A stretch of DNA of 59,038 nt from a bacterium (GCA_027592325.1 JAQCKO010000006.1:1-59038), one strand, 5' to 3'; counted from the stretch's first letter, positions 7,585-44,977 are shown. The notes: a model not told the origin generated them from the sequence alone. A program made the numbers and translations.

Positions 7585-8358
7585 TTACAGTTCTGCAATA
7601 CGCAAATTAAATTCTTCGATTTTCTTATTCTCAGGATTCACTGACGTTAATATTTTAAGCGTTGCTTTCGCCCCCTTTTTATCTTTCAACAGAATAAGTG
7701 AGTCAATAAGAAAATCAAGATATTTGGGGTTTTTCGGCTGTAATTCGGTCGCCTTTTCGAAATATTCCTTTGCAAGTTCTTCATTTTTGAGGAGCCGTTC
7801 AACCTCACCGAGCGATGCAAGTACGCTTGCATCATCAGGAGAAAGTTTTGCCAAAAATCGGAATGTCTCTTTTGCAGAATCGTATTCTTTTTTTTGTAGA
7901 TAGAGCCTACCGAGAGATTCATATGCCTGAACATGCTTCGGATCAGCACTAATGACTTCAATAAACGCTTTTTCTGCACGGTCGTAATGCTCCGCTTGCA
8001 TCATATTTAACCCCTCTTGTAGACGTTCTTCAAGAACTGCACCATCAACCCCTGCTTGCTCGCGTCGCTTTTTTTTATGAGCGCGATCTGCAGCGACAAG
8101 CCTTCCAGCTAATCGACGAAACGCATCTTGCACCCCCTTTGCTGCTGGCGCAATTACACTTGTATGCAAAGCTTTCGCTCCTTTTCCTGATGCACGCTCA
8201 ATACGCTCACGAAGAATTTTGTTTTTAAGCTCAGATGAACGAATCGTTTCCGACGTATGCGGATTGAGCATTCTCAGCTGTGGAAGTTTTTTCGCAAATA
8301 ATCGAAGTAAAATTCCTAATGAGACGCATGCAAGGAAACAAAATAAGAACGCTACCAT
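7585..8358 (-). CDS. Tetratricopeptide repeat protein with N-terminal TM helix
   Basis: Repeated helical TPR-like units (AYESLGRLY, VLASLGEV, AKEYFEKATELQP). Confidence 0.8.
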   Translation of the reverse strand: MVAFLFCFLACVSLGILLRLFAKKLPQLRMLNPHTSETIRSSELKNKILRERIERASGKGAKALHTSVIAPAAKGVQDAFRRLAGRLVAADRAHKKKRREQAGVDGAVLEERLQEGLNMMQAEHYDRAEKAFIEVISADPKHVQAYESLGRLYLQKKEYDSAKETFRFLAKLSPDDASVLASLGEVERLLKNEELAKEYFEKATELQPKNPKYLDFLIDSLILLKDKKGAKATLKILTSVNPENKKIEEFNLRIAEL

Positions 8359-8359
8359 A

Positions 8360-9127
8360 TTACGACTGCATTTCTACAACTTCTTTCGCGCGCGTAAGAA
8401 TCGCGCAAAACTCGTTTAATTTAACACTTGCCCCACCAACCAACACCCCATCAATATCACGCTCACGAAGTAATTGATACGCATTATCTCCATTCACCGA
8501 ACCTCCGTATAAAATGTGTACGGTTTTCGCAGCACTGACTTCTTTCGCAACTTCTCGTCGAATGTGGGTATGCATGTCAAGAATTTGCTCCAAAGATGCT
8601 GGAGCACCCGTGCCAATTGCCCAAACTGGCTCATAGGCAATGATCACGCGTTTTTTCGATGGGATACGCAAATTTTGCAATGCAACTTGAATTTGCTTTG
8701 AAATATACGCATGCTCTCCTCCCTTTGTACGTACTTCTTTTGGCTCGCCGATACAAAGCACAGGTTGCATGGACGATTTCATCGCACGCTCTAATTTTGC
8801 GCGCACAAGCTCGTTTGTCTCACCAAATAACTGTCTACGCTCAGAATGACCTATGAGCACGTACTCGGTTCGAAGCTCTTCTAACATTCCCGAAGACACT
8901 TCACCAGTGTAAGCCCCCGAGACTTCCGCTGCCATATTTTGAGCACCAAATTTCATCCTAGAGCGCGTCAAAAGCTTGCGAATCTCGCTCAGTGCCGTAA
9001 ACGAAGGAAAAATAACAAGCTCAGGCAAATGCTCCGCACCTCGAATAGAACGCAAAATGCCCCTCGTAAGCGCAATACTTTCGCGCACCCCTAATTCCAT
9101 TTTCCAATTACCAAAGACGTATTTCAT
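8360..9127 (-). CDS. tpiA: Triosephosphate isomerase
   Basis: GNWKM, IGHSERR, AYEPVWAIGTG, LYGGSV, GVLVGGAS. Confidence 0.97.
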   Translation of the reverse strand: MKYVFGNWKMELGVRESIALTRGILRSIRGAEHLPELVIFPSFTALSEIRKLLTRSRMKFGAQNMAAEVSGAYTGEVSSGMLEELRTEYVLIGHSERRQLFGETNELVRAKLERAMKSSMQPVLCIGEPKEVRTKGGEHAYISKQIQVALQNLRIPSKKRVIIAYEPVWAIGTGAPASLEQILDMHTHIRREVAKEVSAAKTVHILYGGSVNGDNAYQLLRERDIDGVLVGGASVKLNEFCAILTRAKEVVEMQS

Positions 9128-9178: not shown

Positions 9179-10441
9179 TTACGGGAGGAGCTTCAAAAAG
9201 TCTTCATCCGTAGCATATGGTCCAATCACTGCATACACCACCTGCCCAGAACGGAAAATAATCTTCGCGACACGGGCAATATCCTCTTTTGACACCGCTT
9301 TATACTCAGAAATCAGCTCGTCTGTCGTTCGCACGTAGCCATAATTTAGTTGATCTTCTGCGTCATCATGTGCGCGAGCTGACGTATCTTCATATGTGAG
9401 TTTCATATCGCCAGCCACGTGATCTTTTGCGGCCTCAAGCTCTTCATCACTAACACCCTCCTCGACTATTTTCTGTACTTCCGCATGAATGGCAGCAAGC
9501 GCTTCTTCCAGCCGCGCCGCATCTAACCCTGCGCGAATTTTCATCATACCGCTATCAGTGTAACTATCTGAACCAGCGCGAATGCTGTAACACAGACCGC
9601 GGCGCTCACGAATTTCGGTAAAGAGTCGTGAACTCATCGTTCCGCCCAAAATGATGCCAAGCAGACGCTGTGTTGGATCATCTTCACTCATATGGCTCAA
9701 GGCAGGAAACCCAATCCCAAGCTGAACCTGTTCAATGTCCTTATAGTCACGTTCTAGTCGAATAGATTCAGCACTCATTTGATGCAGCTCAGCAAGAGTG
9801 GGATTCTTTGCCTTTTGCACGGTTCCGAACGTTGATTCAAGCAATGCATCGGCATGATCTGGAATCGCCCCTACGAGCACGACCGTCATATTATCGGCGC
9901 CATAATAGGCATCGCGATACGCAAGAACATCATCACGATTCATTTCAAGAACCGATTTAGCTGTACCTGCAATATCGAGCCCAAGACGACTTCCCTTATA
10001 CATCGCCTGCTCAAGAAGATCTCCAATATGCATGATTGGATTCTCGGCATACATTTTAATCTCCTCAACAATCACCTTTTTCTCACGTTCCATTTCTTCT
10101 TCATCGAATGTGGAAAAGAAGAGCATGTCATGCAAAAGATCAACTGCCATTCCAATCTGATCACCGGCAATTTTGACGTAGTATCCCGTATATTCCTTCC
10201 CTGTAAACGCATTGTATTGCGCCCCATGACGATCAAGCTTTTTTGAAATATCGAGCGTCGTAGGATGTTTTTCTGTTCCCTTGAACATGAGATGCTCAAT
10301 AAAGTGCGAGCCTCCCCAAACGGCATCATGCTCATGACGCGAGCCAATGCGAAAGAGTACCATGGCAGTTGCCGACTCAGCACCAGGAACGGAAATGAGA
10401 TGGTACGGCAAGCCATTTGAAAGTGTTTTTGGGTTAAGCAT
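9179..10441 (-). CDS. M16 (pitrilysin) family zinc peptidase
   Basis: Inverted zinc motif HFIEHLMFKGT; SSRLFTEIRERRGLCY. Confidence 0.92.
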   Translation of the reverse strand: MLNPKTLSNGLPYHLISVPGAESATAMVLFRIGSRHEHDAVWGGSHFIEHLMFKGTEKHPTTLDISKKLDRHGAQYNAFTGKEYTGYYVKIAGDQIGMAVDLLHDMLFFSTFDEEEMEREKKVIVEEIKMYAENPIMHIGDLLEQAMYKGSRLGLDIAGTAKSVLEMNRDDVLAYRDAYYGADNMTVVLVGAIPDHADALLESTFGTVQKAKNPTLAELHQMSAESIRLERDYKDIEQVQLGIGFPALSHMSEDDPTQRLLGIILGGTMSSRLFTEIRERRGLCYSIRAGSDSYTDSGMMKIRAGLDAARLEEALAAIHAEVQKIVEEGVSDEELEAAKDHVAGDMKLTYEDTSARAHDDAEDQLNYGYVRTTDELISEYKAVSKEDIARVAKIIFRSGQVVYAVIGPYATDEDFLKLLP

Positions 10442-34258: not shown

Positions 34259-35380
34259 TTAATGCCTTGCCGTTAAATACACTCCCTCCACCTGCTCTGC
34301 AACCTTATCCCAAGAAAAATCATGCTCAACAATCGCGCGTGCCTCTTCCCCACCATCATGAACACGCGATGTACTCCGAAGAAGCGACTGAAGCTTTTTC
34401 GTTAAATCATCCACATCTCCTTTCTTAAATGTCTCCCCGGATTGCTTAATCGCCTCTTTATTCCCTGCGATATCGGAAACAAGCGGCATCACCCCCGCTG
34501 CCATTGCTTCGAGCACGACAACAGGCAAACCTTCTGAATCGGAAGGATGTACATACAAATATGCTCCGGCAAAAATCTTCTCTACCACATCATGTGGCTG
34601 CCTTCCTAAAAACCGAATCCGATCATCCCCATCCGCTAGGGCAAATAATGCATCAACATAGCGAGCAGTATCGCTTGTATCGCCAACGAGAACGAGTCTG
34701 CGAGTCGTTCTCAGTCGTCGAAACGCCTCAATTAAATAATGTAGGCCTTTTTCTGGCACAAGGCGTCCTACAAACAGGATATACTCTTTCGACTTGATGC
34801 TAAATGCGGCCAGCGCCTGGTCTAAGTCTTTTTTCTTATACGCAACAATCTCTGCGCCATTTGGTATATACACCACCTGTTTTCCGAATGTTTCGCGACA
34901 ATACATCTGAATTTCATGCGAGACGGCAATGGTGTAATGCGGAAAAAGCACTGAAGCACGCTCTGAACATCGCAAATACATCCGGCCAAATAACCCCCAT
35001 TTTGCATGTAACGCATCGCGCGCATGAAAGGTGGCGATGACAGTTGTTTTTGGTCGGAACAGCCGAACAAGCGCACCAAATGTTGACGCACCTACGCCGT
35101 GGTAATGAACAATGTCGTAAGGATGCAGGACTACGTGAAGCGTCGCAACAAAGGCATGTATACCAGCCTCAACCCCTTTTATTGGGATCGTTGGAAGATA
35201 GACAAGTGGAATAGTGTCGATATGCGACTCAGGCTTCGCATAGTATCGCCGACGCGCAGCAACTCGCACGGCATGACCAGCCTTAAGAAGTCGAAGCGAT
35301 ACTTGCCGCACATGCTCCTCAATGCCCCCAAAACGCGTTGCATCGCCAATACCTTTTTGTCCAATCATGAAAATACGCAT
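34259..35380 (-). CDS. Glycosyltransferase family 4
   Basis: GGIEEHV, VGRLVPEKG, PSDSEGLPVVVLEAM. Confidence 0.92.
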   Translation of the reverse strand: MRIFMIGQKGIGDATRFGGIEEHVRQVSLRLLKAGHAVRVAARRRYYAKPESHIDTIPLVYLPTIPIKGVEAGIHAFVATLHVVLHPYDIVHYHGVGASTFGALVRLFRPKTTVIATFHARDALHAKWGLFGRMYLRCSERASVLFPHYTIAVSHEIQMYCRETFGKQVVYIPNGAEIVAYKKKDLDQALAAFSIKSKEYILFVGRLVPEKGLHYLIEAFRRLRTTRRLVLVGDTSDTARYVDALFALADGDDRIRFLGRQPHDVVEKIFAGAYLYVHPSDSEGLPVVVLEAMAAGVMPLVSDIAGNKEAIKQSGETFKKGDVDDLTKKLQSLLRSTSRVHDGGEEARAIVEHDFSWDKVAEQVEGVYLTARH

Positions 35381-35697
35381 AGCAGAAGTATAACAAACCG
35401 TGTACCACCACACCTGGGCGTTAAAAGGGTGCTACATGAACCAAACGCTCCGTAACCAAGTTACGGAATGATGGGTTCATCGTTGATGTTAAACGAGCGA
35501 AGCGATTTTGTCACAACGTTCCGCAGTATGCGAAGTCCCGCCCTTCTTTATCAGCACAAACTTTCACTTCACAACAAATCTAATTTACCGCTTTAAACTC
35601 TCAATTTCAAGAGCGGGATTTGAGTGAAGTGAAGAAGAAATTATTGATTTTTTTCCTTAAATTTAGGGCTTTTTTTAATTTTTTTGTCCTTCGTAAC

Positions 35698-35726
35698 TTG
35701 ACAGGTGGGAAGAGGTCTGCTATGAT
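35698..35726 (+). promoter_or_regulatory. Sigma70 promoter with extended -10
   Basis: TTGACA-17-TATGAT preceded by TG. Confidence 0.75.
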
Positions 35727-35764
35727 GTAAAGTCGCAATTCCGCGACTAATGTAGGAGGACAAC

Positions 35765-36151
35765 ATGAAGTACGCTTTTGTTCGGTACGACGTAAATCGC
35801 AAGGTTGCCGATGGCGGCACCAGCTTCCATAGCGTTCTGATCAAGGGAGAGGCGTCTGAAACCCGCGAATCCTGCCAGAGGTGGATCGAGGAGAACTTCT
35901 CGCCCAACGGCCCGGTCAGGATCCTCTACCGATTCGAGGTACCGGAGGTGTGGACAGAGGATGCGGGCGAGTTCGACGGCTGCCTGAACAGCGCCCTCGA
36001 TGCGGTGACGGGTCTCGACGCACTCACTAACAGTCCTCTGGCGTCCGACCTTCTCGGCGCGATCTTCATGGCGGGGTTCACCTGTGGTATGAGGTTCGAC
36101 TCGGAACTGCAGTCGGCGTTCTACCGAGGTGGCGCAGCCAAGAATAAGTAG
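35765..36151 (+). CDS. Hypothetical protein (antisense minigene inside S1)
   Basis: 128 aa, SD AGGAGG, own promoter, hairpin CGCCCTGTTC/GGACAGGGCG at about 36174-36203. Confidence 0.8.
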   Translation: MKYAFVRYDVNRKVADGGTSFHSVLIKGEASETRESCQRWIEENFSPNGPVRILYRFEVPEVWTEDAGEFDGCLNSALDAVTGLDALTNSPLASDLLGAIFMAGFTCGMRFDSELQSAFYRGGAAKNK

Positions 36152-36296
36152 CTATCGTGTACTTCCGTCAAAGACGCCCTGTTCGAGACATCTTGGACAG
36201 GGCGCTTCACTTTCTGAGAGAAAAAATTGAAAAGAGCCCAATTAAAAATGAAAAGCAAAATCAATAATTTCTTCTTCACGCAACCGCATACTCAGT

Positions 36297-36382
36297 GTTG
36301 TGCGATGTCGCGTAGCGATGAGCACGACAGCGACGATAGGCGCCGCCGTTGTGACGAAGAAGCGAAGCGATTTTGTCACAAC
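36297..36382. repeat. Empty micro-cassette module B + mini-site + D
   Basis: Same module at 43499-43584 and 44632-44717. Confidence 0.8.
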
Positions 36383-36472
36383 GTTTCTGCATATGCGATG
36401 TTTTGCGTAGCAAATATGGGTGAATTGAGTAGGAGGTACGACGACGAACGGACCGCATATTCTGTGTTAGGC
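36376..36472. repeat. attC-like site S2
   Basis: TCACAAC..ATATGCG / CGCATAT..GTTAGGC. Confidence 0.75.
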
Positions 36473-36489
36473 GATGGATAAATAATTTT

Positions 36490-36927
36490 CTATCTATTCA
36501 TGTGAATTGCCAAAACCGTCGGTCTCAATCCTAAAGCGCGGCAGCCGAGGAGTCTGGAATCTCCTGCTAGTAAGTTTGGTTGGTGTCCTTCTCGGAAAAG
36601 AACTACAGGAGCGGGTATGACTGCACCGTTCCTGAGTCCATCTTCGATTTTTTGAAAATCACGTTTGCCTTCCAGATGCTCATGTATTTGTTCACTTGTC
36701 CATGTTGTGTCTCGAGAATCACAATTTTTCATATTTTCCCACTCTTCATCACTAAGCTCCTGTAGCTCTGCTCGTTTGAATGCTTCGATAAGGGAATTAA
36801 GAGCAATTCCAGACTCCTTGGCATGTCTTTCAAGTTCTCCCATTTCTTCTGCAAGTGATGGTTTTAGCCATTGAGGTTTTGGCAATTCATTTTCTGCGCC
36901 AGCTTCATATGATGGAAATTCACTCAT
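36490..36927 (-). CDS. Cassette hypothetical protein (possible ParB/Srx-like C-terminal motif)
   Basis: 145 aa; APVVL...LLAGDSRL loosely resembles ParB-N. Confidence 0.7.
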   Translation of the reverse strand: MSEFPSYEAGAENELPKPQWLKPSLAEEMGELERHAKESGIALNSLIEAFKRAELQELSDEEWENMKNCDSRDTTWTSEQIHEHLEGKRDFQKIEDGLRNGAVIPAPVVLFREGHQPNLLAGDSRLLGCRALGLRPTVLAIHMNR

Positions 36928-36956
36928 ATTGATAGTTTAAAAATTTTAAATCTTTC

Positions 36957-37045
36957 GCCTAACGGCGGCGCCTGATGCGATCGTTTCGAGAGATAAAACC
37001 GAAGGTTTTAGATCGAGAAATGTCGCATAGGCGCTGCCGTTGTGA
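36957..37045. repeat. attC-like site S3 (type A)
   Basis: AACGGCGGCGCCTGATGCGA...TCGCATAGGCGCTGCCGTT; followed by D at 37039-37073. Confidence 0.8.
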
Positions 37046-37066
37046 CGAAGAAGCGAAGCGATTTCG

Positions 37067-37184
37067 TCACAACGTTCGCGCATATGCAGAGTTGTTGCGC
37101 GGTACAATTTAGCGCGGAGCGCTCTACCGCGCAACAATTTGGGTGAGCGACCGCAAGGAGCGAACTGCATATGCGCTGTTGTAC
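37067..37184. repeat. attC-like site S4
   Basis: CGCATATGCAG / CTGCATATGCG arms. Confidence 0.78.
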
Positions 37185-37198
37185 GATGTGCGGCTTTC

Positions 37199-37609
37199 TT
37201 ATTCTTTTACCGGTGTTCCTTGGTGAAATTTTAATTTCCAACCTTTCGGCGTTTTGACCCAGATAGAGCTTCTATTACCTACCTCTACTTCTCCATCATA
37301 CTCAACTTCGCTGGTGTAAGTAACCTGAATGACATCTTGGGCGATGGGGCGCATTTCAAAATTTTTAAAAGGTAGCCTTGCTTTGATTTCATCCCGACGT
37401 GCACCAAGCGTATCTTCCCGTTGGTATATGCGCCCCGATCGCCCGAATTCAAAAAAATCCGGAGCAAGTACACTTTCCATATATACTCTGTCAAATCGTG
37501 TTTCAGCTATCCACATTGAATCTTCAAGCTGCCTTAGTTTTTCACGGTCCTCCTTGCTAATCTCAATCTCTCGTTCGTGGCTCATAGCTAACTCTTTTTT
37601 TGAATTCAT
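37199..37609 (-). CDS. NTF2-like / DUF4440 family protein
   Basis: LAPDFFEFGRSG, RSSIW, WKLKFHQGT. Confidence 0.85.
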   Translation of the reverse strand: MNSKKELAMSHEREIEISKEDREKLRQLEDSMWIAETRFDRVYMESVLAPDFFEFGRSGRIYQREDTLGARRDEIKARLPFKNFEMRPIAQDVIQVTYTSEVEYDGEVEVGNRSSIWVKTPKGWKLKFHQGTPVKE

Positions 37610-37657
37610 ATGTCATTCAGGTTACGTTAGTAAATGATTTTAAGAAAGCCGCATTTC

Positions 37658-37798
37658 GTACAGCGGCGGCGTGTATGAGAAGTTTCGCCGACTTCCTTAT
37701 CCTTATTATAGAGGAAGTGAAATTTGGGTGAAAGAAAAAGTGCAACCTTTGAAAATTATTACGCATTTTTTTCTTGAACCTCATACACGCTGTTATGT
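37658..37798. repeat. attC-like site S5 (R box degenerate: AGC)
   Basis: GCGTGTATGAG / CTCATACACGC arms; closely similar to S6. Confidence 0.72.
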
Positions 37799-38359
37799 GC
37801 TGTTGGTTGCCGATTTAATCGCACTGAATATTGAATGATAATCAATACTTTCAAAGTCGGTAGTGTCTATGTCAAAAACTTTGCCTCCTATATTAAGGGC
37901 CCGATATTCGCCTTTTAGTAGAACTTCTTTGAACTCATCATAGTTTTGATCGTCAACGTGACCTGGATGACGCTCGCGAGATTCCGAACGCTTTTTGAAA
38001 CGCTCAAAGAGAATTTCGCCGTCGGTTTTGCACATTACTTGCATTGCCTGAAAATCATATTTTTTCTGCAAATCAAGGAATCTCTCTTCGTCATATTCAG
38101 GTTTCAGTGGTGTTTCTATGATGAATGAATTTTTTGACTCTAGCAGCGTTTCGATGAGGTGATAGAGAATGTTATAACTTGCAATCCCTAGCTTCTTTGA
38201 CCATTCACGATCTTTCACGCCAAGAGAATCAAAGAGAGATTCCTTGATGTCATCACGACTAATTAAAGGCAGGCGAAATTCTCGTGCTATTTTCTTTGCA
38301 AGAGTCGTTTTTCCGGTACACGGAGGGCCCGATATTATTAAAAGCAAAGTTTTTGACAT
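37793..38359 (-). CDS. P-loop kinase (AAA_33-like)
   Basis: IISGPPCTGKTT; stop TAA inside the GCACATAAC R box. Confidence 0.85.
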   Translation of the reverse strand: MSKTLLLIISGPPCTGKTTLAKKIAREFRLPLISRDDIKESLFDSLGVKDREWSKKLGIASYNILYHLIETLLESKNSFIIETPLKPEYDEERFLDLQKKYDFQAMQVMCKTDGEILFERFKKRSESRERHPGHVDDQNYDEFKEVLLKGEYRALNIGGKVFDIDTTDFESIDYHSIFSAIKSATNST

Positions 38360-38389
38360 GTTTTTATTTTAACTTAGGCAACCAATTGC

Positions 38390-38531
38390 ACATAACGTTT
38401 GCGTGTGTGAGAAGTTTCGCCGACTTTCTTCATTTTATAAATAGAGGGGGCGAAATTTGGGTGAAAGAAATAGTGCAACCTTTGAAAATTATTACGCATT
38501 TTTTTCTTGAACCTCATACACGATGTTGTAC
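38390..38531. repeat. attC-like site S6
   Basis: CGTGTGTGAG / CTCATACACG arms. Confidence 0.78.
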
Positions 38532-38557
38532 GATGTTGCGAGACAACCGTCGTTGCA

Positions 38558-38863
38558 TTATTCCGTTCTATCTAAAATTATTCTTTGCTTAAAACCACCA
38601 CGTTCTTTCGCTTTTTTCTGGCGGACTTCTTCGAGCATCTGCAAATCCACACCTTTCAGAGCGCAAATTGCGTGTAAAACTTCTAAAATATCAGCGGCCT
38701 CTTCCACGCTTGGATTTTCTAGAAATTCACCGACTTCTTCGTGCAACTTGCGCGTCAAAGCTTCCTCGTACTCTTTTTCTTCAGCAATATGAGTAATCGG
38801 CGTCTCACCTTTATTTTGTATGATCTCGGGAATGTTATCCCTGACTAATTTGTTGTATTCCAT
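38558..38863 (-). CDS. MazG-superfamily NTP pyrophosphohydrolase (KLVRD-IPE type)
   Basis: YNKLVRDNIPEII, KLHEEVGEF, EAADILEV, RGGFKQRI. Confidence 0.85.
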   Translation of the reverse strand: MEYNKLVRDNIPEIIQNKGETPITHIAEEKEYEEALTRKLHEEVGEFLENPSVEEAADILEVLHAICALKGVDLQMLEEVRQKKAKERGGFKQRIILDRTE

Positions 38864-38908
38864 AAGAAAAAGCGGAATTAATATATAATAGGTTGTCTTG
38901 CGATTTCG

Positions 38909-39036
38909 TCACAACGTTTCTGACATGCGAAGTTGAAAACCCCCGCCTCCTAGTTCAATCTTATCAATAAGAGCAGGGTTTTCAATTTGGGTGAGGGCTT
39001 TCATAAAAAGCCCGAACCACATGTCCAGTGTTAGCT
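38909..39036. repeat. attC-like site S7
   Basis: GACATG / CATGTC arms; AATTTGGGTG...AACC core. Confidence 0.72.
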
Positions 39037-39205
39037 GAAATATTCCTTTTCTTTTCCTACGATAGTCGGTTGTTTTGAAAATTTTCAAATTTCTTTTCGA
39101 CAATGAGGAGGAAGAGCGAATATTAACAATTTAACACACAAATGGTAGTTTGTAATGTCATTTCTTGACCCGATCAGCTGTGGTTAGCTGGTATTGGAGG
39201 AGTCC

Positions 39206-39589
39206 ATGAATCGCACGATCAGGCTGACCGAGCTGTCTTTCGAGGACGGCATCACCAGACGGGACTCTGAGGTGAAGTACTTCGTTCAGGCGGAGTACAG
39301 CTACGTGGAAAATGAGGTCATCATGGGCCTTTACGCTGGTGACGAACACTTCGACCGAGTGTGGAGCTTTCCGATCGAGCTCCTGCTCGAGGGCCGAGTG
39401 GTCGACTTCAGCAACTTTGAAGGCCCTTACATCCTCGCCGATGCAGTACTTGCAATCGTCGCCGAGAACACGTCCGTCAGGCTCCACTTCGTGGAGGACC
39501 GAAGCGTAGTTAGCATCACGGTTTGTGATGAGACCGTCTCTCACCCTCTGGACAACGACGTGGCTCGCCGGATGTTCAGAGGGATCTGA
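39206..39589 (+). CDS. Hypothetical protein (antisense cassette minigene)
   Basis: SD GGAGGAG at 39196, ATG 39206; hairpin GAACCGCCTAC/GTGGGCGGTTC downstream. Confidence 0.8.
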   Translation: MNRTIRLTELSFEDGITRRDSEVKYFVQAEYSYVENEVIMGLYAGDEHFDRVWSFPIELLLEGRVVDFSNFEGPYILADAVLAIVAENTSVRLHFVEDRSVVSITVCDETVSHPLDNDVARRMFRGI

Positions 39590-39723
39590 CCTCCGATCGA
39601 CTCCCCGCCCCCTACGAACCGCCTACTGGTTCATCTGGTGGGCGGTTCTTCGTTTTAGAAAGAAATTTGAAAATTTTAAAACAATTGGGCGACAGCCCAG
39701 AAAAGAAAAGGAATATTTCAGCT

Positions 39724-39780
39724 AACAGCGACGATAGGCGCCGCCGTTGTGACGAAGAAGCGAAGCGGTTTCGTCACAAC
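39724..39780. repeat. Mini-site + empty micro-cassette D
   Basis: AACAGCGACGATAGGCGCCGCCGTT then GTTGTGACGAA...TTCGTCACAAC. Confidence 0.78.
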
Positions 39781-39867
39781 GTCAGGGATATGAGAAGTTG
39801 CGACCGTAAGGAGCAATTTGGGCGGAGGATTTTGTACAAAGCCGTAGCCTCATACACGCTGTTATAT
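39774..39867. repeat. attC-like site S8
   Basis: ATGAG / CTCAT arms; AAGTTGC..GCAATTTGGGCG core. Confidence 0.7.
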
Positions 39868-39953
39868 TCCCGAAGGGCTGAAATTTAGTGCAACGTCCCG
39901 AAGGGAAATTTTAGAGTTGTCGTGTCTAAAACAAAATTGTAGTCGGGCACACA

Positions 39954-40991
39954 CTAATTCTCAAATATTTTTTCAATCAATTTAAATTCTTTTTTATGGC
40001 AATCAAACTCAGCTTTTATTCCTAATGGCAAAATCCATTGCGGATCAGTATGACCAAAATCCATATTCGTGATTATCGGAAGACTTAAATTATTAAACTC
40101 AGTATTTACCACATTGAGAACATTTTCGTTTAAACTTTTCTTTTCATCTTCAGAATAGTCTCTTGGTCTTCCGATAAGCAATGCGGAGATTTTGTCAAAC
40201 ACTCCTTGTATTCCATAGTTTCGTAGCATCCATTTGACTTGGTCTGGAGATGGCTTGTCTTCAGATGTTTCTAAGAAAAGGATTTTGCCATTCCAAAAAT
40301 CATCATTAGGCCAATATTTTGTGCTTTTCATAAATTCAAGAACCTCAATACAACCGCCAAATAATTCTCCTTGAATTTTTGAACTTCCTTGTAAAATATT
40401 CCAGCCAGTATTTTTTGACATTGGTTTTACTTGCCCGACATTGGACTTGTCTCCCCAATCCAAATATCCCTCGGAATAAGAATCATATGACTTGTATTCA
40501 TAATTTTCTGGATTTTCAAATAAGATTGTTTTGACATGCTCTTGGAAATTTTTCCCTAATGCATCCCATTGAGAAAATCCTGCCATGATTGCAGGACCAT
40601 GTAGAGTGACAAGTCCTAATTGATTAAAGTATGTCAAAAGAGTGGTTGTATCAGAATAACCGATGATGATTTTTGGGTTTTTCCGAATTACATCTACACT
40701 TAGAAAAGGCATTATTCTTACAGAATCATCCCCGCCGATTGATACAAAAATTGCTTTCACTTCTTCATCAGCAAAAGCATCATTTATATCTTTGGCTCTA
40801 AATTCCGGATTTTTGTAAAGATAATCTGCATCTTTTCTTGCAGAGGGATATTCTTTAATTTTAAGACCTAAATTTTCAAGCGTCTTAATGCCTGATTCAT
40901 AAATATGAGGAAAAACACTTGGTCCGCCCCACGATGGAGATACAATTGCAACGATATCTCCTTTCTGTAATTTTTTTAGTTTGATTGCCAT
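39954..40991 (-). CDS. S66 family peptidase (LD-carboxypeptidase / MccF-like)
   Basis: IVSPSWG, SIGGDDS, IGYSDTT, LFLETSE, MDFGHTDP. Confidence 0.92.
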   Translation of the reverse strand: MAIKLKKLQKGDIVAIVSPSWGGPSVFPHIYESGIKTLENLGLKIKEYPSARKDADYLYKNPEFRAKDINDAFADEEVKAIFVSIGGDDSVRIMPFLSVDVIRKNPKIIIGYSDTTTLLTYFNQLGLVTLHGPAIMAGFSQWDALGKNFQEHVKTILFENPENYEYKSYDSYSEGYLDWGDKSNVGQVKPMSKNTGWNILQGSSKIQGELFGGCIEVLEFMKSTKYWPNDDFWNGKILFLETSEDKPSPDQVKWMLRNYGIQGVFDKISALLIGRPRDYSEDEKKSLNENVLNVVNTEFNNLSLPIITNMDFGHTDPQWILPLGIKAEFDCHKKEFKLIEKIFEN

Positions 40992-41063
40992 ACTATTTTG
41001 ATAAATTGATTGATTTATATAATTTGTATGCCCGACTACTCCTAATTAATTTGCACGACAATT

Positions 41064-41150
41064 GAATATACGGTGGCGCCTGATGCGTTCGTTTCGAGAG
41101 ATAAAACCGAAGGTTTTAGATCGAGAAATGTCGCATAGGCGCTGTTGTGC
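41064..41150. repeat. attC-like site S9 (type A, left R box degenerate)
   Basis: GAATATAC instead of ATATAAC; type A body. Confidence 0.72.
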
Positions 41151-41177
41151 GATGTTATAAAATATTAAATTTTATCC

Positions 41178-41726
41178 TTACAATTTTAATACAGATTTCA
41201 AAGCGGCTGGAAGTTCGTTTACTCCATCGTCACCGCTAAAATGTTTCATATCTTGTTGAATAATAATGTCTGCGCTGAGGTTATTCCTGAAGAAGTCGGC
41301 ATAATGAAGCGAAACATACGGATCATTGGATGAATGAATGGCTACAAATTTATCGCAGTGAGATTTTATTTTAGACCAATCTATTTTACTTTGGAAAAAT
41401 GTGTCCAATTCATCATAGCCCAGATTTGAAGTGAAACCAGCGACTAAAACTGCGCCGCCAATTTTTTGATCTGCCTTGAGCGACTCGATATATCTCAATA
41501 TTATAATACTACCCAAACTATGACCAACGAAATAGCAGTTTTCATCTGGGCTACCGACAAGTTTTTTCAAATGATCTAGCCATTCATTCATCTTTGGTTT
41601 CGCTGAATTTGGCATCAAAGGAACAATTACCTCAAACCCGTGTTTCTCCAAATCATTCTTGAGCCAAGGATACCACCCATGTTCGGGTGAACCTTCCCAG
41701 CCGTGTATTAAAATTGCTTTTTTCAT
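41178..41726 (-). CDS. RBBP9/YdeN-family alpha/beta hydrolase
   Basis: IHGWEGSP...WYPWL, VGHSLG, HSSNDPYV, KHF. Confidence 0.92.
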   Translation of the reverse strand: MKKAILIHGWEGSPEHGWYPWLKNDLEKHGFEVIVPLMPNSAKPKMNEWLDHLKKLVGSPDENCYFVGHSLGSIIILRYIESLKADQKIGGAVLVAGFTSNLGYDELDTFFQSKIDWSKIKSHCDKFVAIHSSNDPYVSLHYADFFRNNLSADIIIQQDMKHFSGDDGVNELPAALKSVLKL

Positions 41727-41755
41727 AATCGTAAAATGTAATATTTTTTATTTCG

Positions 41756-41832
41756 TCACAACGTCAGTTGTATCTGATGTTGCGAAGCAAATATGGGTGG
41801 AACGTAGCGGAACCGCATAGCCAGTGTTATGT
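41756..41832. repeat. attC-like site S10
   Basis: TCACAAC...GGGTG..AACCGCATAGCCAGTGTTATGT. Confidence 0.7.
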
Positions 41833-41858
41833 GCAATACCCTTCGTCCGTCATCTTTG

Positions 41859-42677
41859 TCATAGCAAACCTTTACCAGAATTGATAACAATGATTTTATC
41901 TTCCTTTTTTATTTTCAAATCTGACAACACCCCAAATACAATAGCACTGGAAGGCTCACATTTGATGTATTTTTTTGCAAGTGAGTAGGCTTGTTTTATT
42001 GTTTCTTCTGACAATCTAATTACTTTGTGTTTGCGCCAAAATATTGATTTCATTTTTGAGGAATAAGGTGTCCAGGGAGTGTGAAGTTTATCAGCAAAAG
42101 ACGGACTACTTTTTGGCGCAACACCAATAAGCGTGGTATTCAATTTGTATTTTTTTATTCCATTAAACAAGCCTGCGAACGTCTCGCCGCTACCCACTGG
42201 CGTGATTAAAAAATTTGGCCGGCTGTTTTTGATTTCTTTGATGATGTCCTCATATGCATCGTGCCAGCCATTAGTCACGTCCCAGATGACTTCCTCGTCA
42301 GTTTCTCTCGCCAAAGAAATAACCTCTTCAGGTTTGAGTATGTGAGATGACAAATCAACCTGAATAACTTTGCAAGAAACGGTGACGAGATTTTCGTAAA
42401 TTGTGGCAGGAAGTTTTTTATCAACAATACAGACGACTTTAAGATTGGAGCCGTTGGCAAATTTGGCGAGAGAAACGCCAGCATTTCCGGACGTGATGAG
42501 TGCTAGCTTATCAATATGTTCATCCAGCGCTTTCTTGACGATAGCTTCGGAGCGCCTATCTTTGTATGTCCCAAATGGATTTTTAGACTCGTCTTTAATA
42601 AAAAGATTAGGCAGACCAAATTTTTTACAAAAATATTCTTCTTTAATTAAGGGGGTGTTGCCTGATTTATATTTCAT
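41859..42677 (-). CDS. PLP-dependent fold-type II enzyme (threonine synthase/cysteine synthase-like)
   Basis: GNTPLI, KDESKNPFGTYKDR, TSGNAG, PVGSGET, CEPSSA. Confidence 0.88.
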   Translation of the reverse strand: MKYKSGNTPLIKEEYFCKKFGLPNLFIKDESKNPFGTYKDRRSEAIVKKALDEHIDKLALITSGNAGVSLAKFANGSNLKVVCIVDKKLPATIYENLVTVSCKVIQVDLSSHILKPEEVISLARETDEEVIWDVTNGWHDAYEDIIKEIKNSRPNFLITPVGSGETFAGLFNGIKKYKLNTTLIGVAPKSSPSFADKLHTPWTPYSSKMKSIFWRKHKVIRLSEETIKQAYSLAKKYIKCEPSSAIVFGVLSDLKIKKEDKIIVINSGKGLL

Positions 42678-42748
42678 AATGACAAAATCATTGTGACATT
42701 GTATAAAAACATTTCTACAATGTCAGCAATAAGGACGAAGGGCATTGC

Positions 42749-42900
42749 ACATAACGGCGGCGCCTGATGCGATCGTTTCGAGAGATAAAACCGAAGGTTT
42801 TAGATCGAGAAATGTCGCATAGGCGCTGTTGCGACCAACGGGAGCGAGAATGTAGGTGAAGGCCGAGCCGAGGCCTGAACCGCATATCGTGCTGTTAGGC
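42749..42900. repeat. attC-like sites S11 (type A) and S12 separated by a 12-nt body
   Basis: Type A at 42753-42830; GTTGCGACCAAC at 42828-42839; S12 ends AACCGCATATCGTGCTGTTAGGC. Confidence 0.7.
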
Positions 42901-43012
42901 GAGGGTTCATTTTGGCTTCCTTATTATTTAATCAAGAAAAGATCCAAAATGAAAGCGCAGCGCCCCCTTACGTTTATTTTTCCAAACTGCTTTTCACACC
43001 AGCTTTCGCTAC

Positions 43013-43041
43013 TTGACAGTTTGCCCACCTCATGGTAATCT
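43013..43041 (+). promoter_or_regulatory. Sigma70 promoter with extended -10
   Basis: TTGACA-17-TAATCT preceded by TG. Confidence 0.7.
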
Positions 43042-43099
43042 GCAACGTCCTTTGGACTGCGCCTCAAGTGGGGCGTAAACCCGCACTTTGGAAGAAGAA

Positions 43100-43303
43100 A
43101 TGAAAGTCAAGACTTTCGTGGTCGGATTGGTCGATGGGGTGGTCCCATCGTTGACACGACTCGACGAATGCGTCGCCGAGCTCGGTAATGTCGTCATCCA
43201 CAGCTTGGTCGACACCGTCTACTCGGCGGATAGCAATTCGTTAGGAAGACCGCCGGGTGAGCGCATCGCTCGAGTGATCGTCTACACACCCGAGAGCAGG
43301 TAG
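43100..43303 (+). CDS. 67-aa hypothetical protein (antisense cassette minigene)
   Basis: Own promoter; hairpin CCCGTGTTTG/CAAACACGGG downstream. Confidence 0.7.
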   Translation: MKVKTFVVGLVDGVVPSLTRLDECVAELGNVVIHSLVDTVYSADSNSLGRPPGERIARVIVYTPESR

Positions 43304-43419
43304 CCCCCCGTGTTTGCACGCAACATCGTCAAACACGGGCGGGCAAACACATTCACTCTACCGAGTGTTTTTTTATTGTACAAAATTTTCATGAAAAGCG
43401 ATTTGATAAAATAAATGTC

Positions 43420-43584
43420 GCCTAACGGCGGCGCCTGATGCGATCGTTTCGAGAGATAAAACCGAAGTTTTTAGATCGAGAAATGTCGCATAGGCGCTGT
43501 TGTGCGATGTCGCGTAGCGATGAGCACGACAGCGACGATAGGCGCCGCCGTTGTGACGAAGAAGCGAAGTGATTTCGTCACAAC
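43420..43584. repeat. attC-like S13 (type A) + B + mini-site + D
   Basis: Near-identical to 44553-44717. Confidence 0.82.
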
Positions 43585-43687
43585 GTTTATGAATATCTGA
43601 TGTTTTCATCCCGTTTCATGGAGATAAAGTTTATTTTTCAGGCATTCTTTGTTCGTAAATATTCCGCCCAGATATTCATTGTTATGT
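43578..43687. repeat. attC-like site S14
   Basis: ATGAATATCTG / CAGATATTCAT arms. Confidence 0.78.
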
Positions 43688-43731
43688 GATGTAGCCAGAA
43701 ATTTCTATTCCTAAATTATTTTGTTGGTAAT

Positions 43732-44002
43732 TTATTGTTTGACTTCGATGCTTTCCGAAGCAATATTTTTTTGCTTATCTTTCTTGCCCACGACTAATTG
43801 ATAGATTTTTCTTACAACAATAATGAATACTACAAACCCTACAATTTCAGCGACTGCCTCAAGATTTGCTGCTGCCCTTGGGCCTGAAATTCCCATCGGA
43901 CCTAACACAAATGGCCCAGACAATAAAAGCGTGTATTTAGCGATCATCCATGCGACGTAACCTACTAATACACTTGCGATACCTCCGAGTATTTTTTTTC
44001 AT
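43732..44002 (-). pseudogene. Small membrane protein cassette, frameshifted in an A8 run right after ATG
   Basis: ATG 44002 + A8 is out of frame with KKILGGIASVLVGYVAWMIAKY...; A7 would give a ~89-aa two-TM protein. Confidence 0.6.
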
Positions 44003-44114
44003 AAGCTTTTGAATAACGTTATGTAATTGGTTAAATTTTATCACAAGCTATGTTCGACCTGAAATAAATTGCCAAAAAAATCTAAAAAATAATAAAGAAA
44101 TTTCTGGCTATTTC

Positions 44115-44192
44115 ACATAACGTTTCTGAATATCTGAAGTTGCGATAGCAATTTGGGTGAAGCGAAGCGGAACCAGATATTCAGTGTTATCG
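44115..44192. repeat. attC-like site S15
   Basis: CTGAATATCTG / CAGATATTCAG arms. Confidence 0.8.
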
Positions 44193-44203
44193 GATGTAAT
44201 TTT

Positions 44204-44527
44204 TTATTTATCTTTTTTCAGCCATGCATTGCTGATCCACTTTTTATCAATAGCTTCTTCTAAGTCGATACCGAGAAGATGAGCATTGACCATTGCCATA
44301 CCAACAACATCAGCAAGCTCTTTTGCCACCTCTCTTTTTGAAACATCTTCCGTCACATGTTTCTCTGGACGACTCTTTTTTCTATGAATCAAAACTGCTT
44401 GCGAAAATTCACCAACCTCTTCATATAATTTTATCAATGCGAAATCTTCGTCAATTTCAACATCATACTCCTTACCGTAACGGATAGCATTCTCCACTAC
44501 TTTTTGTTGTATATCTTTGAATTTCAT
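44204..44527 (-). CDS. MazG-like nucleotide pyrophosphohydrolase
   Basis: KLYEEVGEFSQA, KELADVV, DLEEAIDKKW. Confidence 0.85.
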   Translation of the reverse strand: MKFKDIQQKVVENAIRYGKEYDVEIDEDFALIKLYEEVGEFSQAVLIHRKKSRPEKHVTEDVSKREVAKELADVVGMAMVNAHLLGIDLEEAIDKKWISNAWLKKDK

Positions 44528-44552
44528 AAAAAGAAAAATTAAAAATTATTTC

Positions 44553-44717
44553 CGATAACGGCGGCGCCTGATGCGATCGTTTCGAGAGATAAAACCGAAG
44601 GTTTTAGATCGAGAAATGTCGCATAGGCACTGTTGTGCGATGTCGTGTAGCGATGAGCACGACAGCGACGATAGGCGCCGCCGTTGTGACGAAAAAGCGA
44701 AGCGATTTCGTCACAAC
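44553..44717. repeat. attC-like S16 (type A) + B + mini-site + D
   Basis: First module of the array in transcription order. Confidence 0.82.
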
Positions 44718-44775
44718 TCGTTTTTATCCGAACATTATAATACGATTTTAGCAATTATTGTACATAATACGAACT
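44711..44775 (-). promoter_or_regulatory. Candidate attI site and Pc promoter
   Basis: GATAAAAACGAG|TTGTGA core, 9-bp direct repeat, extended -10 TGCTAAAAT. Confidence 0.45.
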
Positions 44776-44901: not shown

Positions 44902-44977
44902 TGGTGCGCCGGGTGGGATTCGAACCCACGACCACGGGCTTAAAAGGCCCTTGCTCTACCAACTGAGCTACCAGCGC
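44902..44977 (-). tRNA. tRNA-Lys(UUU)
   Basis: 76-nt cloverleaf, anticodon TTT, TTCGAAT T-loop, encoded CCA. Confidence 0.97.

Follow-up and report, generated by a model that had tools for sequence, protein, structure and literature searches.

The stretch of bacterial DNA analyzed here (GCA_027592325.1 JAQCKO010000006.1:1-59038; 59,038 nt, hereafter the window) contains between positions 35488 and 44717 an integron-like cassette array, in which five copies of a 35-nt element, D, and three copies of a 32-nt element, B, are embedded (Table 1). An earlier note on this DNA had described D, B and a 12-nt sequence as empty micro-cassettes. By direct reading and repeat analysis, bodies of the form GTT...AAC alternate in the array with sites that are imperfect palindromes of 64-128 nt bounded AAC/.../GTT (here and below a slash inside a motif marks the unit boundary). 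The cassette genes lie on the - strand, as do nearly all genes of the window. A Pfam survey of all open reading frames (ORFs) of at least 110 aa identified small single genes as cargo, i.e., DUF4440, an AAA_33/zeta-like kinase, two MazG-like proteins, an LD-carboxypeptidase, a serine hydrolase and a PALP enzyme, and such genes are typical of integrons. The surroundings are ordinary chromosomal DNA (mur/ftsW/mraY, mreB, ribosomal proteins and glycosyltransferases), and no tyrosine recombinase was detected among the ORFs of at least 110 aa in the window, which extends 35 kb to the left and 14 kb to the right of the array. On its two sides the array has, instead of an integron integrase gene, a GT4 glycosyltransferase gene and tRNA-Lys/murG. 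The closest MurG homologues bear Patescibacteria/Parcubacteria names, and the host is an uncultured Patescibacteria-type bacterium. Since the tRNA was the sole match when the array was compared with Rfam at a permissive threshold, D, B and the sites do not belong to a known RNA family.

Element D and the only structural difference between two strains

D (GTTGTGACGAAGAAGCGAAGCGATTTCGTCACAAC) occurs at five positions and B at three, as the earlier note had it; all these copies are on the + strand and have 0-1 mismatch. No copy of either is expected by chance (no match to D in 100 dinucleotide-preserving shuffles), and a mismatch-tolerant search of both strands of the window confined D, B and the associated motifs to positions 35488-44717. 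The predicted fold of D (-10.7 kcal/mol, z -5.1) is a stem of 11 bp without mismatch that closes a 13-nt loop. The loop joins two mutually inverted copies of the arm found at the ends of all bodies (TTCGTCACAAC and its inverse). The right copy equals the generic right end of a cassette and the left copy is its exact inverse, and the last 13-16 nt of D also terminate the ORF cassettes at 38915 and 41763. D is thus a cassette body without cargo, reduced to its end-arms and a loop. Neither D nor B nor the 12-mer can encode a protein, as had been noted. The half copy of D said to end at 35517 is real (GCGATTTTGTCACAAC), but it reads as a decayed whole D (D0 in Table 1). In general, the bodies carry terminal inverted repeats of 9-28 nt, with the consensus GTTnnnnGATGT on the left and ATTTCnnnnAAC on the right and a fixed TG-versus-AA asymmetry, and the left end of B and the right end of D do reproduce these generic ends. 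Two fixed positions separate the ends in all the bodies of the window (left ...GATGT, right ...ATTTC; e.g., 37178/37664, 43681/44121 and 44186/44559), which gives a T.G wobble and a T.T mismatch on the + strand, and C.A and A.A on the - strand; this asymmetry may be a mark for strand choice.

All five copies of D lie directly to the right of a site of type A (described below) or of its 19-nt end, and what follows on their right is one of four different type-C sites or the flank. The same type-A-then-D order was found at the related loci L014, L019/L020 and L029. The type-A site and D form a unit of 110-158 nt that consists of recombination signals only. The identity across three genomes is 91-94% for D, 75-84% for B and 54-64% for the core hairpin of the type-A site, and the core of the D loop, AGCGAAGCGAT, is invariant across five lineages. 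Furthermore, the distal end could be seen in three arrays (the window, L016 and L017), and in each of them D is the outermost element, next to different host flanks; at the attI side, D is the first unit in the window and also in L020, about 120 nt from a recombinase gene in the latter.

The MurG homologue P0121 (99% identical) led to scaffold L029, which is co-linear with the window and 99.96% identical to it over 19.3 kb. Only one structural difference was observed, and it lies at D copy 2 (L029 19166-19900 versus window 36953-37094). L029 has in addition a type-C site with a cassette for a 143-aa ORF, for which no family is on record, and a second unit of short type-A site plus D that is identical to the first at 110 of 110 positions. 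The indel is therefore exactly two AA/C-bounded units, flanked by a 121-nt perfect repeat. It could have arisen if a copy of the D cassette was placed one position away and the interval was afterwards lost from the window, by excision of two cassettes or by homologous recombination, or else by the insertion of a two-cassette circle. Under either route, the alignment places D and its site at the break-point of the only rearrangement between these two near-identical strains. In assembler contigs from a second aquatic-sample metagenome, alternative joints were found at the ends of B and D: in one of them (36308 to 41750) the left part of B runs directly into ...TTATTTCGTCACAAC, the last 15 nt of the hydrolase cassette, so that the gene is skipped, and in another a type-C site is followed by B. 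As evidence of turnover such joints are weak. The contigs of this second sample, whose depth is above that of this organism, also contain the cassette at 43681-44121 in a version 319 nt shorter (43712-44032).

The Y-shaped site, the site types and the polarity of the array

A pairing scan closed AAC-GGCGGCGCCT...AGGCGCCGCC-GTT over 123 nt around B copies 2 and 3. This span is composed of a type-A core, B and a 19-mer, and it is predicted to fold as a three-way junction (-44 kcal/mol, z -8.3) built from a basal stem, the hairpin of the core and an extended hairpin formed by B (CGCTGTTGTGC...GCACGACAGCG). The Y fold recurs in L014 (-63.2 kcal/mol, z -12.4) and L019 (-42.7 kcal/mol, z -9.95). Its basal stem differs by genome, being GGCCGGC/GCCGGCC and TGTCCGGCA/TGCCGGACA in L014 and L019, and GGCGGCGCCT/AGGCGCCGCC in the window, so that in the predicted folds this stem co-varies. 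The inner 5-bp stem of B is kept while its loop varies (GTA, GGA, AAA). These models indicated that B is not a cassette but the third arm of the long, Y-shaped form of the type-A site, a place that it has in two of its three copies in the window and in two further genomes. The core swap at 36297 and the lone 19-mer at 39727 look like secondary rearrangements. Hence, the proposal that the short elements are minimal cassettes holds for D, which has a 35-nt body and its own type-A site and behaves as a unit in the L029 polymorphism, but neither for B nor for the 12-mer.

Two types of site were distinguished. Type A (GGCGGCGCCTGATGCG...CGCATAGGCGCTG) is present in five copies of 81-100% identity, and type C contains two inner hairpins (GTTTCTGCATATGCGAAG - hairpin - CAATTTGGGTGA - hairpin - GAACCGCATATTCAGT). 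About 17 sites were recognized by their anatomy, not by the attC covariance model of IntegronFinder, and they are attC-like in their length (the canonical range is 57-141 nt), in their AAC/.../GTT bounds, in their predicted folds (z -4 to -8) and in that there is one site per body. In the type-C site at 35518-36296 a whole gene lies within an inner hairpin, and therefore the "loop" of a site can hold cargo. This gene is flanked by its own 23-nt perfect inverted repeat, and a like arrangement is seen in L021 at about 8003-8425. The 12-nt sequence GTTGCGACCAAC is present at 42828-42839, as reported, but it is not a unit of its own: 0.36 copies are expected by chance, and at least one was found in 29 of 100 shuffles. 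It corresponds to G/TT plus the start of the first inner hairpin of a type-C site (compare GTTGCGACCGTAAGGAGCAATTTGGG at 39796), and the remainder of the fused site in which it lies can be aligned with type-C sites from the window and from L028. We conclude that the 12-mer is a chance palindrome within a truncated type-C site.

In the relatives the cassette genes and the recombinase gene are divergent, which makes the right end of the window array the equivalent of the attI side. The array thus runs from right to left and the left-end copy of D is distal. Accordingly, D had been placed next to attI correctly for the right-hand copy (44683-44717) only. The first cassettes differ between arrays, yet all of them join attI at ...AAC/, and a duplicated unit in L021 comprises a site and the body on its right, bounded AAC/...AAC/. 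Because of the divergence, the AAC/ junctions, the L021 duplication and the fixed left-hand neighbor of D, we define a cassette as a site plus the body to its right in + coordinates, with putative exchange at AA/C on the + strand. The opposite definition, a body plus the site to its right in a + strand array, was rejected on account of the right-hand sites of D, which all differ, of the L021 duplication and the L029 indel, and of the position of recombinase and attI on the right in the relatives. For every site folded, the + strand fold was more stable than that of the - strand (-44 versus -36.6, -29.1 versus -24.3 and -13.9 versus -9.4 kcal/mol; in L019, -42.7 versus -29.9), since the G.T pairs of the + strand turn into A.C mismatches on the - strand. 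According to the GC skew, the + strand is the leading-strand template, an arrangement that is also reported for the recombining strand of sedentary integrons. In the predicted folds, bulges are located on the 5′ arm (R'-L') of the + strand, a G and a T in type A and a 3-nt TTT in type C.

The array also contains small ORFs in reverse orientation, on the + strand (35765-36151, 39206-39589 and about 43088-43303), each with its own strong promoter and terminator. Similar ORFs are found in the relatives (L021 7034-7387 and 4186-4413, L022 7530-7874, L019 114-395). Their GC content is 56-68% (49% in L019), versus 34-43% in co-oriented cassettes and 46% in the host. The reverse ORFs of the window, L019, L021 and L022 gave no Pfam match and are mutually unrelated.

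Table 1. Coordinates of the array, its elements and neighboring features in the window, and of the recombinase genes at related loci
Feature	Position	Strand	Remarks
GT4 glycosyltransferase gene	34259-35413		Flanks the array
Whole integron-like cassette array	35488-44717	-	About 18 units bounded AAC/.../GTT; distal end 35488, attI-proximal end 44717
D0, decayed whole D (GTTAAACGAGCGAAGCGATTTTGTCACAAC)	35488-35517	+	Distal end, abuts host DNA; no longer folds; same position as D in L016 and L017
Type-C site with gene	35518-36296	+	Reverse-strand ORF 35765-36151 in second inner hairpin; own promoter 35698-35726, terminator 36175-36204
B copy 1	36297-36328	+	Type-A core on its left replaced by the type-C site 35518-36296
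19-mer AGCGACGATAGGCGCCGCC	36329-36347	+	3′ strand of the Y basal stem, orphaned here
D copy 1	36348-36382	+	TTTTGTC variant in common with D0
Short type-A site	36964-37038	+	75 nt; predicted single hairpin, bulged G and T on 5′ arm; -29.1 kcal/mol, z -8.2
D copy 2	37039-37073	+	Site of the sole structural difference from L029
19-nt type-A/Y remnant	39727-39745	+	Directly after a cassette body end (...AGCTAAC)
D copy 3	39746-39780	+	
Fused site	42756-42892	+	Type-A core (42756-42828) joined at G/TT to a type-C site without 5′ arm
Y-shaped long type-A site with B copy 2 (43499-43530)	43427-43549	+	Basal stem GGCGGCGCCT/AGGCGCCGCC; core and B hairpins (predicted)
D copy 4	43550-43584	+	
Y-shaped long type-A site with B copy 3 (44632-44663)	44560-44682	+	Repeat family 93% identical to 43407-43584
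D copy 5	44683-44717	+	First unit at the attI-proximal end
attI-start remnant TCGTTTTTATCCGAACAT	44718-44735	+	About 18 nt; resembles TCGTTTATATACGAAAAC of the relatives; rest of attI and recombinase gene absent
Promoter-like site	44737-44764	-	TGTACA-16-TATTAT, 9/12 matches, consensus match only; points into the array
tRNA-Lys(UUU)	44902-44977	-	Flanks the array; then murG-ftsW-mraY
Recombinase genes (about 270 aa)	L014 793-1623; L020 4488-5303; L021/L022/L027 10001-10816; L028 3280-4059		

Related arrays, their recombinase and attI

The stem pattern of D, with any loop, was searched in 185,579 species genomes and gave 15 single matches. Fourteen of them are unrelated hairpins with other loops, and the remaining one is a true D (33/35 identical) within an array on the Patescibacteria contig L014. 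When the JGI metagenomes were scanned with the right half of D, five loci were obtained, four of them true and all four in arrays or at array ends. No copy of D was found outside the array in the window, its true homologues elsewhere are all in arrays, and the dispersed occurrence that would make D and B generic repeats was not observed. In L014 the order is a type-A-like site, B', 16 nt, D', a type-C site, three more cassettes, about 300 nt and the gene of a 270-aa tyrosine recombinase, which is transcribed away from the array. In L019/L020, B' is followed by 21 nt and D', which adjoins a conserved region; about 120 nt farther along begins the gene for a 271-aa recombinase. Homologous arrays adjoin a recombinase gene in L014, L020, L021, L022, L027 and L028; homologues of the L020 recombinase (69-71% identical) are present in L021, L022/L023, L027 and L028, with the arrays on the same side. 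A 5.6-kb contig reached through the dehydratase contained no recombinase. As the cation ATPase of the window is only 30% identical to that of L022, no synteny with L022 is claimed.

The recombinases match NCBIfam NF040815 ("XerA / integron integrase"), the best NCBIfam model, at about its cut-off, whereas their scores with TIGR02249 (integron integrase) are 179-207 bits, below the cut-off of 265. The best structural match of the L020 protein is VchIntIA (2a3v), and the alignments of the L014 and L020 proteins with it consist of two blocks and leave out about 40-56 residues of IntI. Integron integrases are defined by an IntI-specific additional domain around patch III (PMC9668308), and this domain is absent from the L014 and L020 recombinases. 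More than 7,600 database proteins match the recombinase family at E<=1e-30, and many of them are named Patescibacteria. Just upstream of the recombinase gene, a conserved attI-like region AAC/TCGTTTATATACGAAAACATTTCGTATATATGTCCACATCTTGCAT was found in L020, L021, L022, L025, L026, L027 and L028. It holds a perfect 11-bp/3-nt palindrome whose arms resemble cassette right ends, and its layout is dif-like: the 11-mer arms TTTCGTACAAC, TATATACGAAA and TTTCGTATATA resemble a dif core with a 5-6-nt center. The junction ...AAC/TCGTTTATATACGAAAACATTTCGT is conserved in L020, L021, L022, L025, L027 and L028 although the first cassettes are different, as is proper to an attI site, and no more than about 18 nt of this region remain in the window.

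The first unit is not D in every array. It is a gene-less micro-body in L022 (48 nt) and L027 (87 nt, twice), a 216-nt body with no obvious gene in L014 and an ORF cassette in L021 and L028. In L027 the first two positions at attI, about 9450-9860, are identical tandem gene-less cassettes, each composed of the 87-nt body and a type-C site. The type-C motif AAATTTGGGNGR occurs once downstream of the recombinase gene, outside the main array and near TMEM43 and SBP genes, in L021 (11374), L027 (12689), L028 (5971) and L025 (3588). In L016 a GC-rich stretch of about 150 nt lies between the L25/Ctc gene and a membrane-protein gene (- strand, about 830-690); it is preceded by a promoter-like TTGACA..TATTAAT, has a terminator-like hairpin at its end, and may be a small RNA gene.

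A probable mobile gene-less cassette and the alternative explanations

Our favored and, on balance, probable reading is that D is a gene-less cassette and B an arm of a Y-shaped site in an integron-like array served by a small IntI-like recombinase, and that the unit of type-A site plus D is mobile and marks the points at which cassettes are gained and lost. The recombinase would be a tyrosine recombinase of about 270 aa, closest to the integron integrases but lacking their specific insertion, of the kind encoded beside the arrays of the relatives and outside this window. It would exchange strands at AA/C of the + strand, which is G/TT on the cassette-coding - strand, and would cleave AA/C both in the folded + strand sites and in attI, having bound to the TTTCGTnCAAC arms of the cassette ends and of D, and to TATATACGAAA/TTTCGTATATA of attI. 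The type-A site plus D would then be a complete cassette, excised, re-inserted and copied as any other, and in the form of a closed circle it would carry the junction ...TTCGTCACAA/C-GGCGGCGCC.... The distal D would represent the original right-hand partner of attI, so that a D in first position would return the native arm (GCGATTTCGTCACAAC) beside attI, and identical copies of the unit on both sides of cassettes would bring about their joint loss or gain. The function of D would thus be that of a minimal mobile unit and of a partner arm for attI.

Several observations weigh against this reading. The L029 difference could also be produced by RecA-type recombination between the 121-nt repeats, and recombination activity in the window is deduced from the strain difference alone, with no recombinase in the window. 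A gene-less body occupies the first position in four of eight arrays, an enrichment that is not statistically secure and only suggestive. The bulges of the predicted folds lie on the arm opposite to that of canonical attC sites, where extrahelical bases are on the R''-L'' arm of the bottom strand. At three places, i.e., where a type-A core meets B, where the type-C site meets B at 36297 and in the fused site at 42828, the sequences look like exchanges at G/TT of the + strand, which a strict single-strand AA/C model does not predict. The loop of D is strongly conserved, which points to a sequence-specific role that the idea of a selfish minimal cassette leaves unexplained. Finally, the scans of the two collections required exact matches, so that diverged copies of D elsewhere would have escaped them.

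Other explanations were considered for the same elements. They could be neutral debris, i.e., roleless leftovers (D, B, the 19-mer and the 12-mer) of cassettes that lost their genes by replication slippage between long terminal inverted repeats or by illegitimate recombination. The 23-28-nt terminal inverted repeats of the ORF cassettes, the gene-less micro-bodies of other sequence in other arrays (those of L022 and L027, and one of 72 nt in L017), the metagenome contig that skips the hydrolase gene, and the rearranged sites at 39727 and 42756-42892 all agree with such an origin, which we nevertheless regard as unlikely: D is conserved, loop included, where the adjoining core hairpins have diverged, the same D closes the distal end of three arrays in front of different host DNA, and the B stem pairs through altered loops while the predicted Y basal stem co-varies. 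An origin in the opposite direction, in which D (or B...D) is a blank hairpin whose loop receives new genes and from which cassettes inherit their arms, appears quite improbable. The ORF cassettes 38525-38915 and 41144-41763 do start like B (GTTGTRCGATGT) and end in the last 13-16 nt of D, a reverse-strand ORF cassette of L019 ends in AAGAAGTGATTTCGTCACAAC, and type-C sites can carry a whole gene in a hairpin. However, these common ends are largely the generic cassette-end consensus, the sequences do not give the direction of descent (from empty to full or the reverse), no insertion mechanism is evident, and the sole polymorphism seen concerns whole units and not an insertion into the loop of D.

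In another explanation, D and the Y site act as RNA or DNA hairpins that tune the expression of downstream cassettes, as attenuator, insulator or leader. It is known that attC structures influence cassette translation in classical integrons. In the window, D copy 5 and its Y site separate the first cassette gene from the promoter-like site (44764-44737, - strand), and the predicted hairpins are stable; moreover, ORF-less cassettes with regulatory roles have been described (PMC8876359). We give this explanation little credit, somewhat more than the blank hairpin, because D also lies at the distal end, past the last cassette, and beside attI in the relatives, which suits recombination better, and no Rfam match was obtained. 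In its simplest form, that D and B are terminators, as the earlier note had suggested, it was ruled out: no T run follows either element on any strand, and neither is in the list of the terminator scan. The least credible explanation, to the point of being nearly negligible, is that D and B are generic genome-wide repeats of the repetitive extragenic palindromic/bacterial interspersed mosaic element (REP/BIME) type or of the miniature inverted-repeat transposable element type, located here by chance. They are short, palindromic and multi-copy as those repeats are, but, unlike them, they are confined to the array, with a fixed neighbor and orientation and no copy in the other 50 kb of the window, and the matches to the D stem pattern in the species genomes were unrelated hairpins with the exception of the one in a homologous array; the true metagenome matches all lie in arrays. 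A REP-type repeat is thus disfavored by what is seen in the window and at the loci of the relatives. A dif site of the housekeeping Xer recombinases is also unlikely, because the GC skew is monotonic with no terminus in the window, the spacer of D is 13 nt long and there are 5-6 copies.

Relation to known systems and significance

The gene-less-cassette reading can be compared with systems already described. The array resembles sedentary chromosomal integrons and CALINs, i.e., clusters of at least two attC sites without an integron integrase nearby (PMC9024848), in its single-gene cassettes, its imperfect palindromes, its invariant ...AAC and GTT... ends and its co-oriented genes, and as in sedentary integrons the divergent tyrosine recombinase gene and the attI-like region of the relatives adjoin the first cassette. 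With about 17 sites recognized by anatomy and no recombinase in the window, the array conforms to the description of a CALIN. Unlike in known integrons and CALINs, its bodies have terminal inverted repeats with a fixed TG/AA asymmetry, and its sites are branched, Y-shaped in type A and two-hairpin in type C, and can hold a gene. It is not a canonical integron, given that the recombinase is absent from the window and lacks the IntI domain in the relatives, and that, in the folding models, the bulges are on the opposite arm. The ORF-less cassettes of which we know are hundreds of nt long, whereas the body of D has only 35 nt, is conserved between genomes and marks array ends. Gene-less integron cassettes as such are known (PMC8876359, section 2.4.3). 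In integrons of classes 1 and 2, delta-attI cassettes carry 14-18-nt attI remnants that are recombination-competent (PMC12901181). As in those cassettes, short site remnants (the 19-nt type-A remnant and the copies of D) replace a full attC inside the array; there, however, the left part of attI replaces the attC after a resistance gene, whereas here the remnant would be the right-hand partner arm of attI and is gene-less. Xer/dif systems, such as the pdif modules of Acinetobacter plasmids, combine an Xer-sized recombinase with modules bounded by inverted 28-bp duplex sites. The recombinase of the relatives has a similar size, the 11-mer arms of their attI have a dif-like layout and the modules here, too, have inverted sites as their bounds, but the sites between cassettes are folded palindromes of 64-128 nt, the best match of the L020 recombinase is VchIntIA, and the layout is that of an integron.

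In the literature searched, integron-like arrays were not described for Patescibacteria or the candidate phyla radiation. More tentatively, and with less confidence than for the mobility of D, these arrays might constitute a distinct class of integrons, with a small IntI-like recombinase without the IntI domain, Y-shaped attC sites, a dif-like attI and the T.T/T.G mark in place of extrahelical bases. D would then be a portable attI arm that restores the native attI, and cassettes would be gained and lost at break-points defined by its copies. Among natural gene-capture devices integrons are the best understood, and the questions that they pose include the origin of cassettes and sites and the nature of the minimal mobile unit. 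The type-A site plus D is a cassette pared down to recombination signals (110-158 nt), conserved, present at both ends of the array, and it brackets the only structural difference between two near-identical strains. If the recombinase is active on the sites of these arrays, the pair of D and type-A site would be a natural substrate of very small size for the study of site recognition, strand choice and attI function, and it could also serve as a probe of how integrase specificity evolves from Xer-like enzymes.

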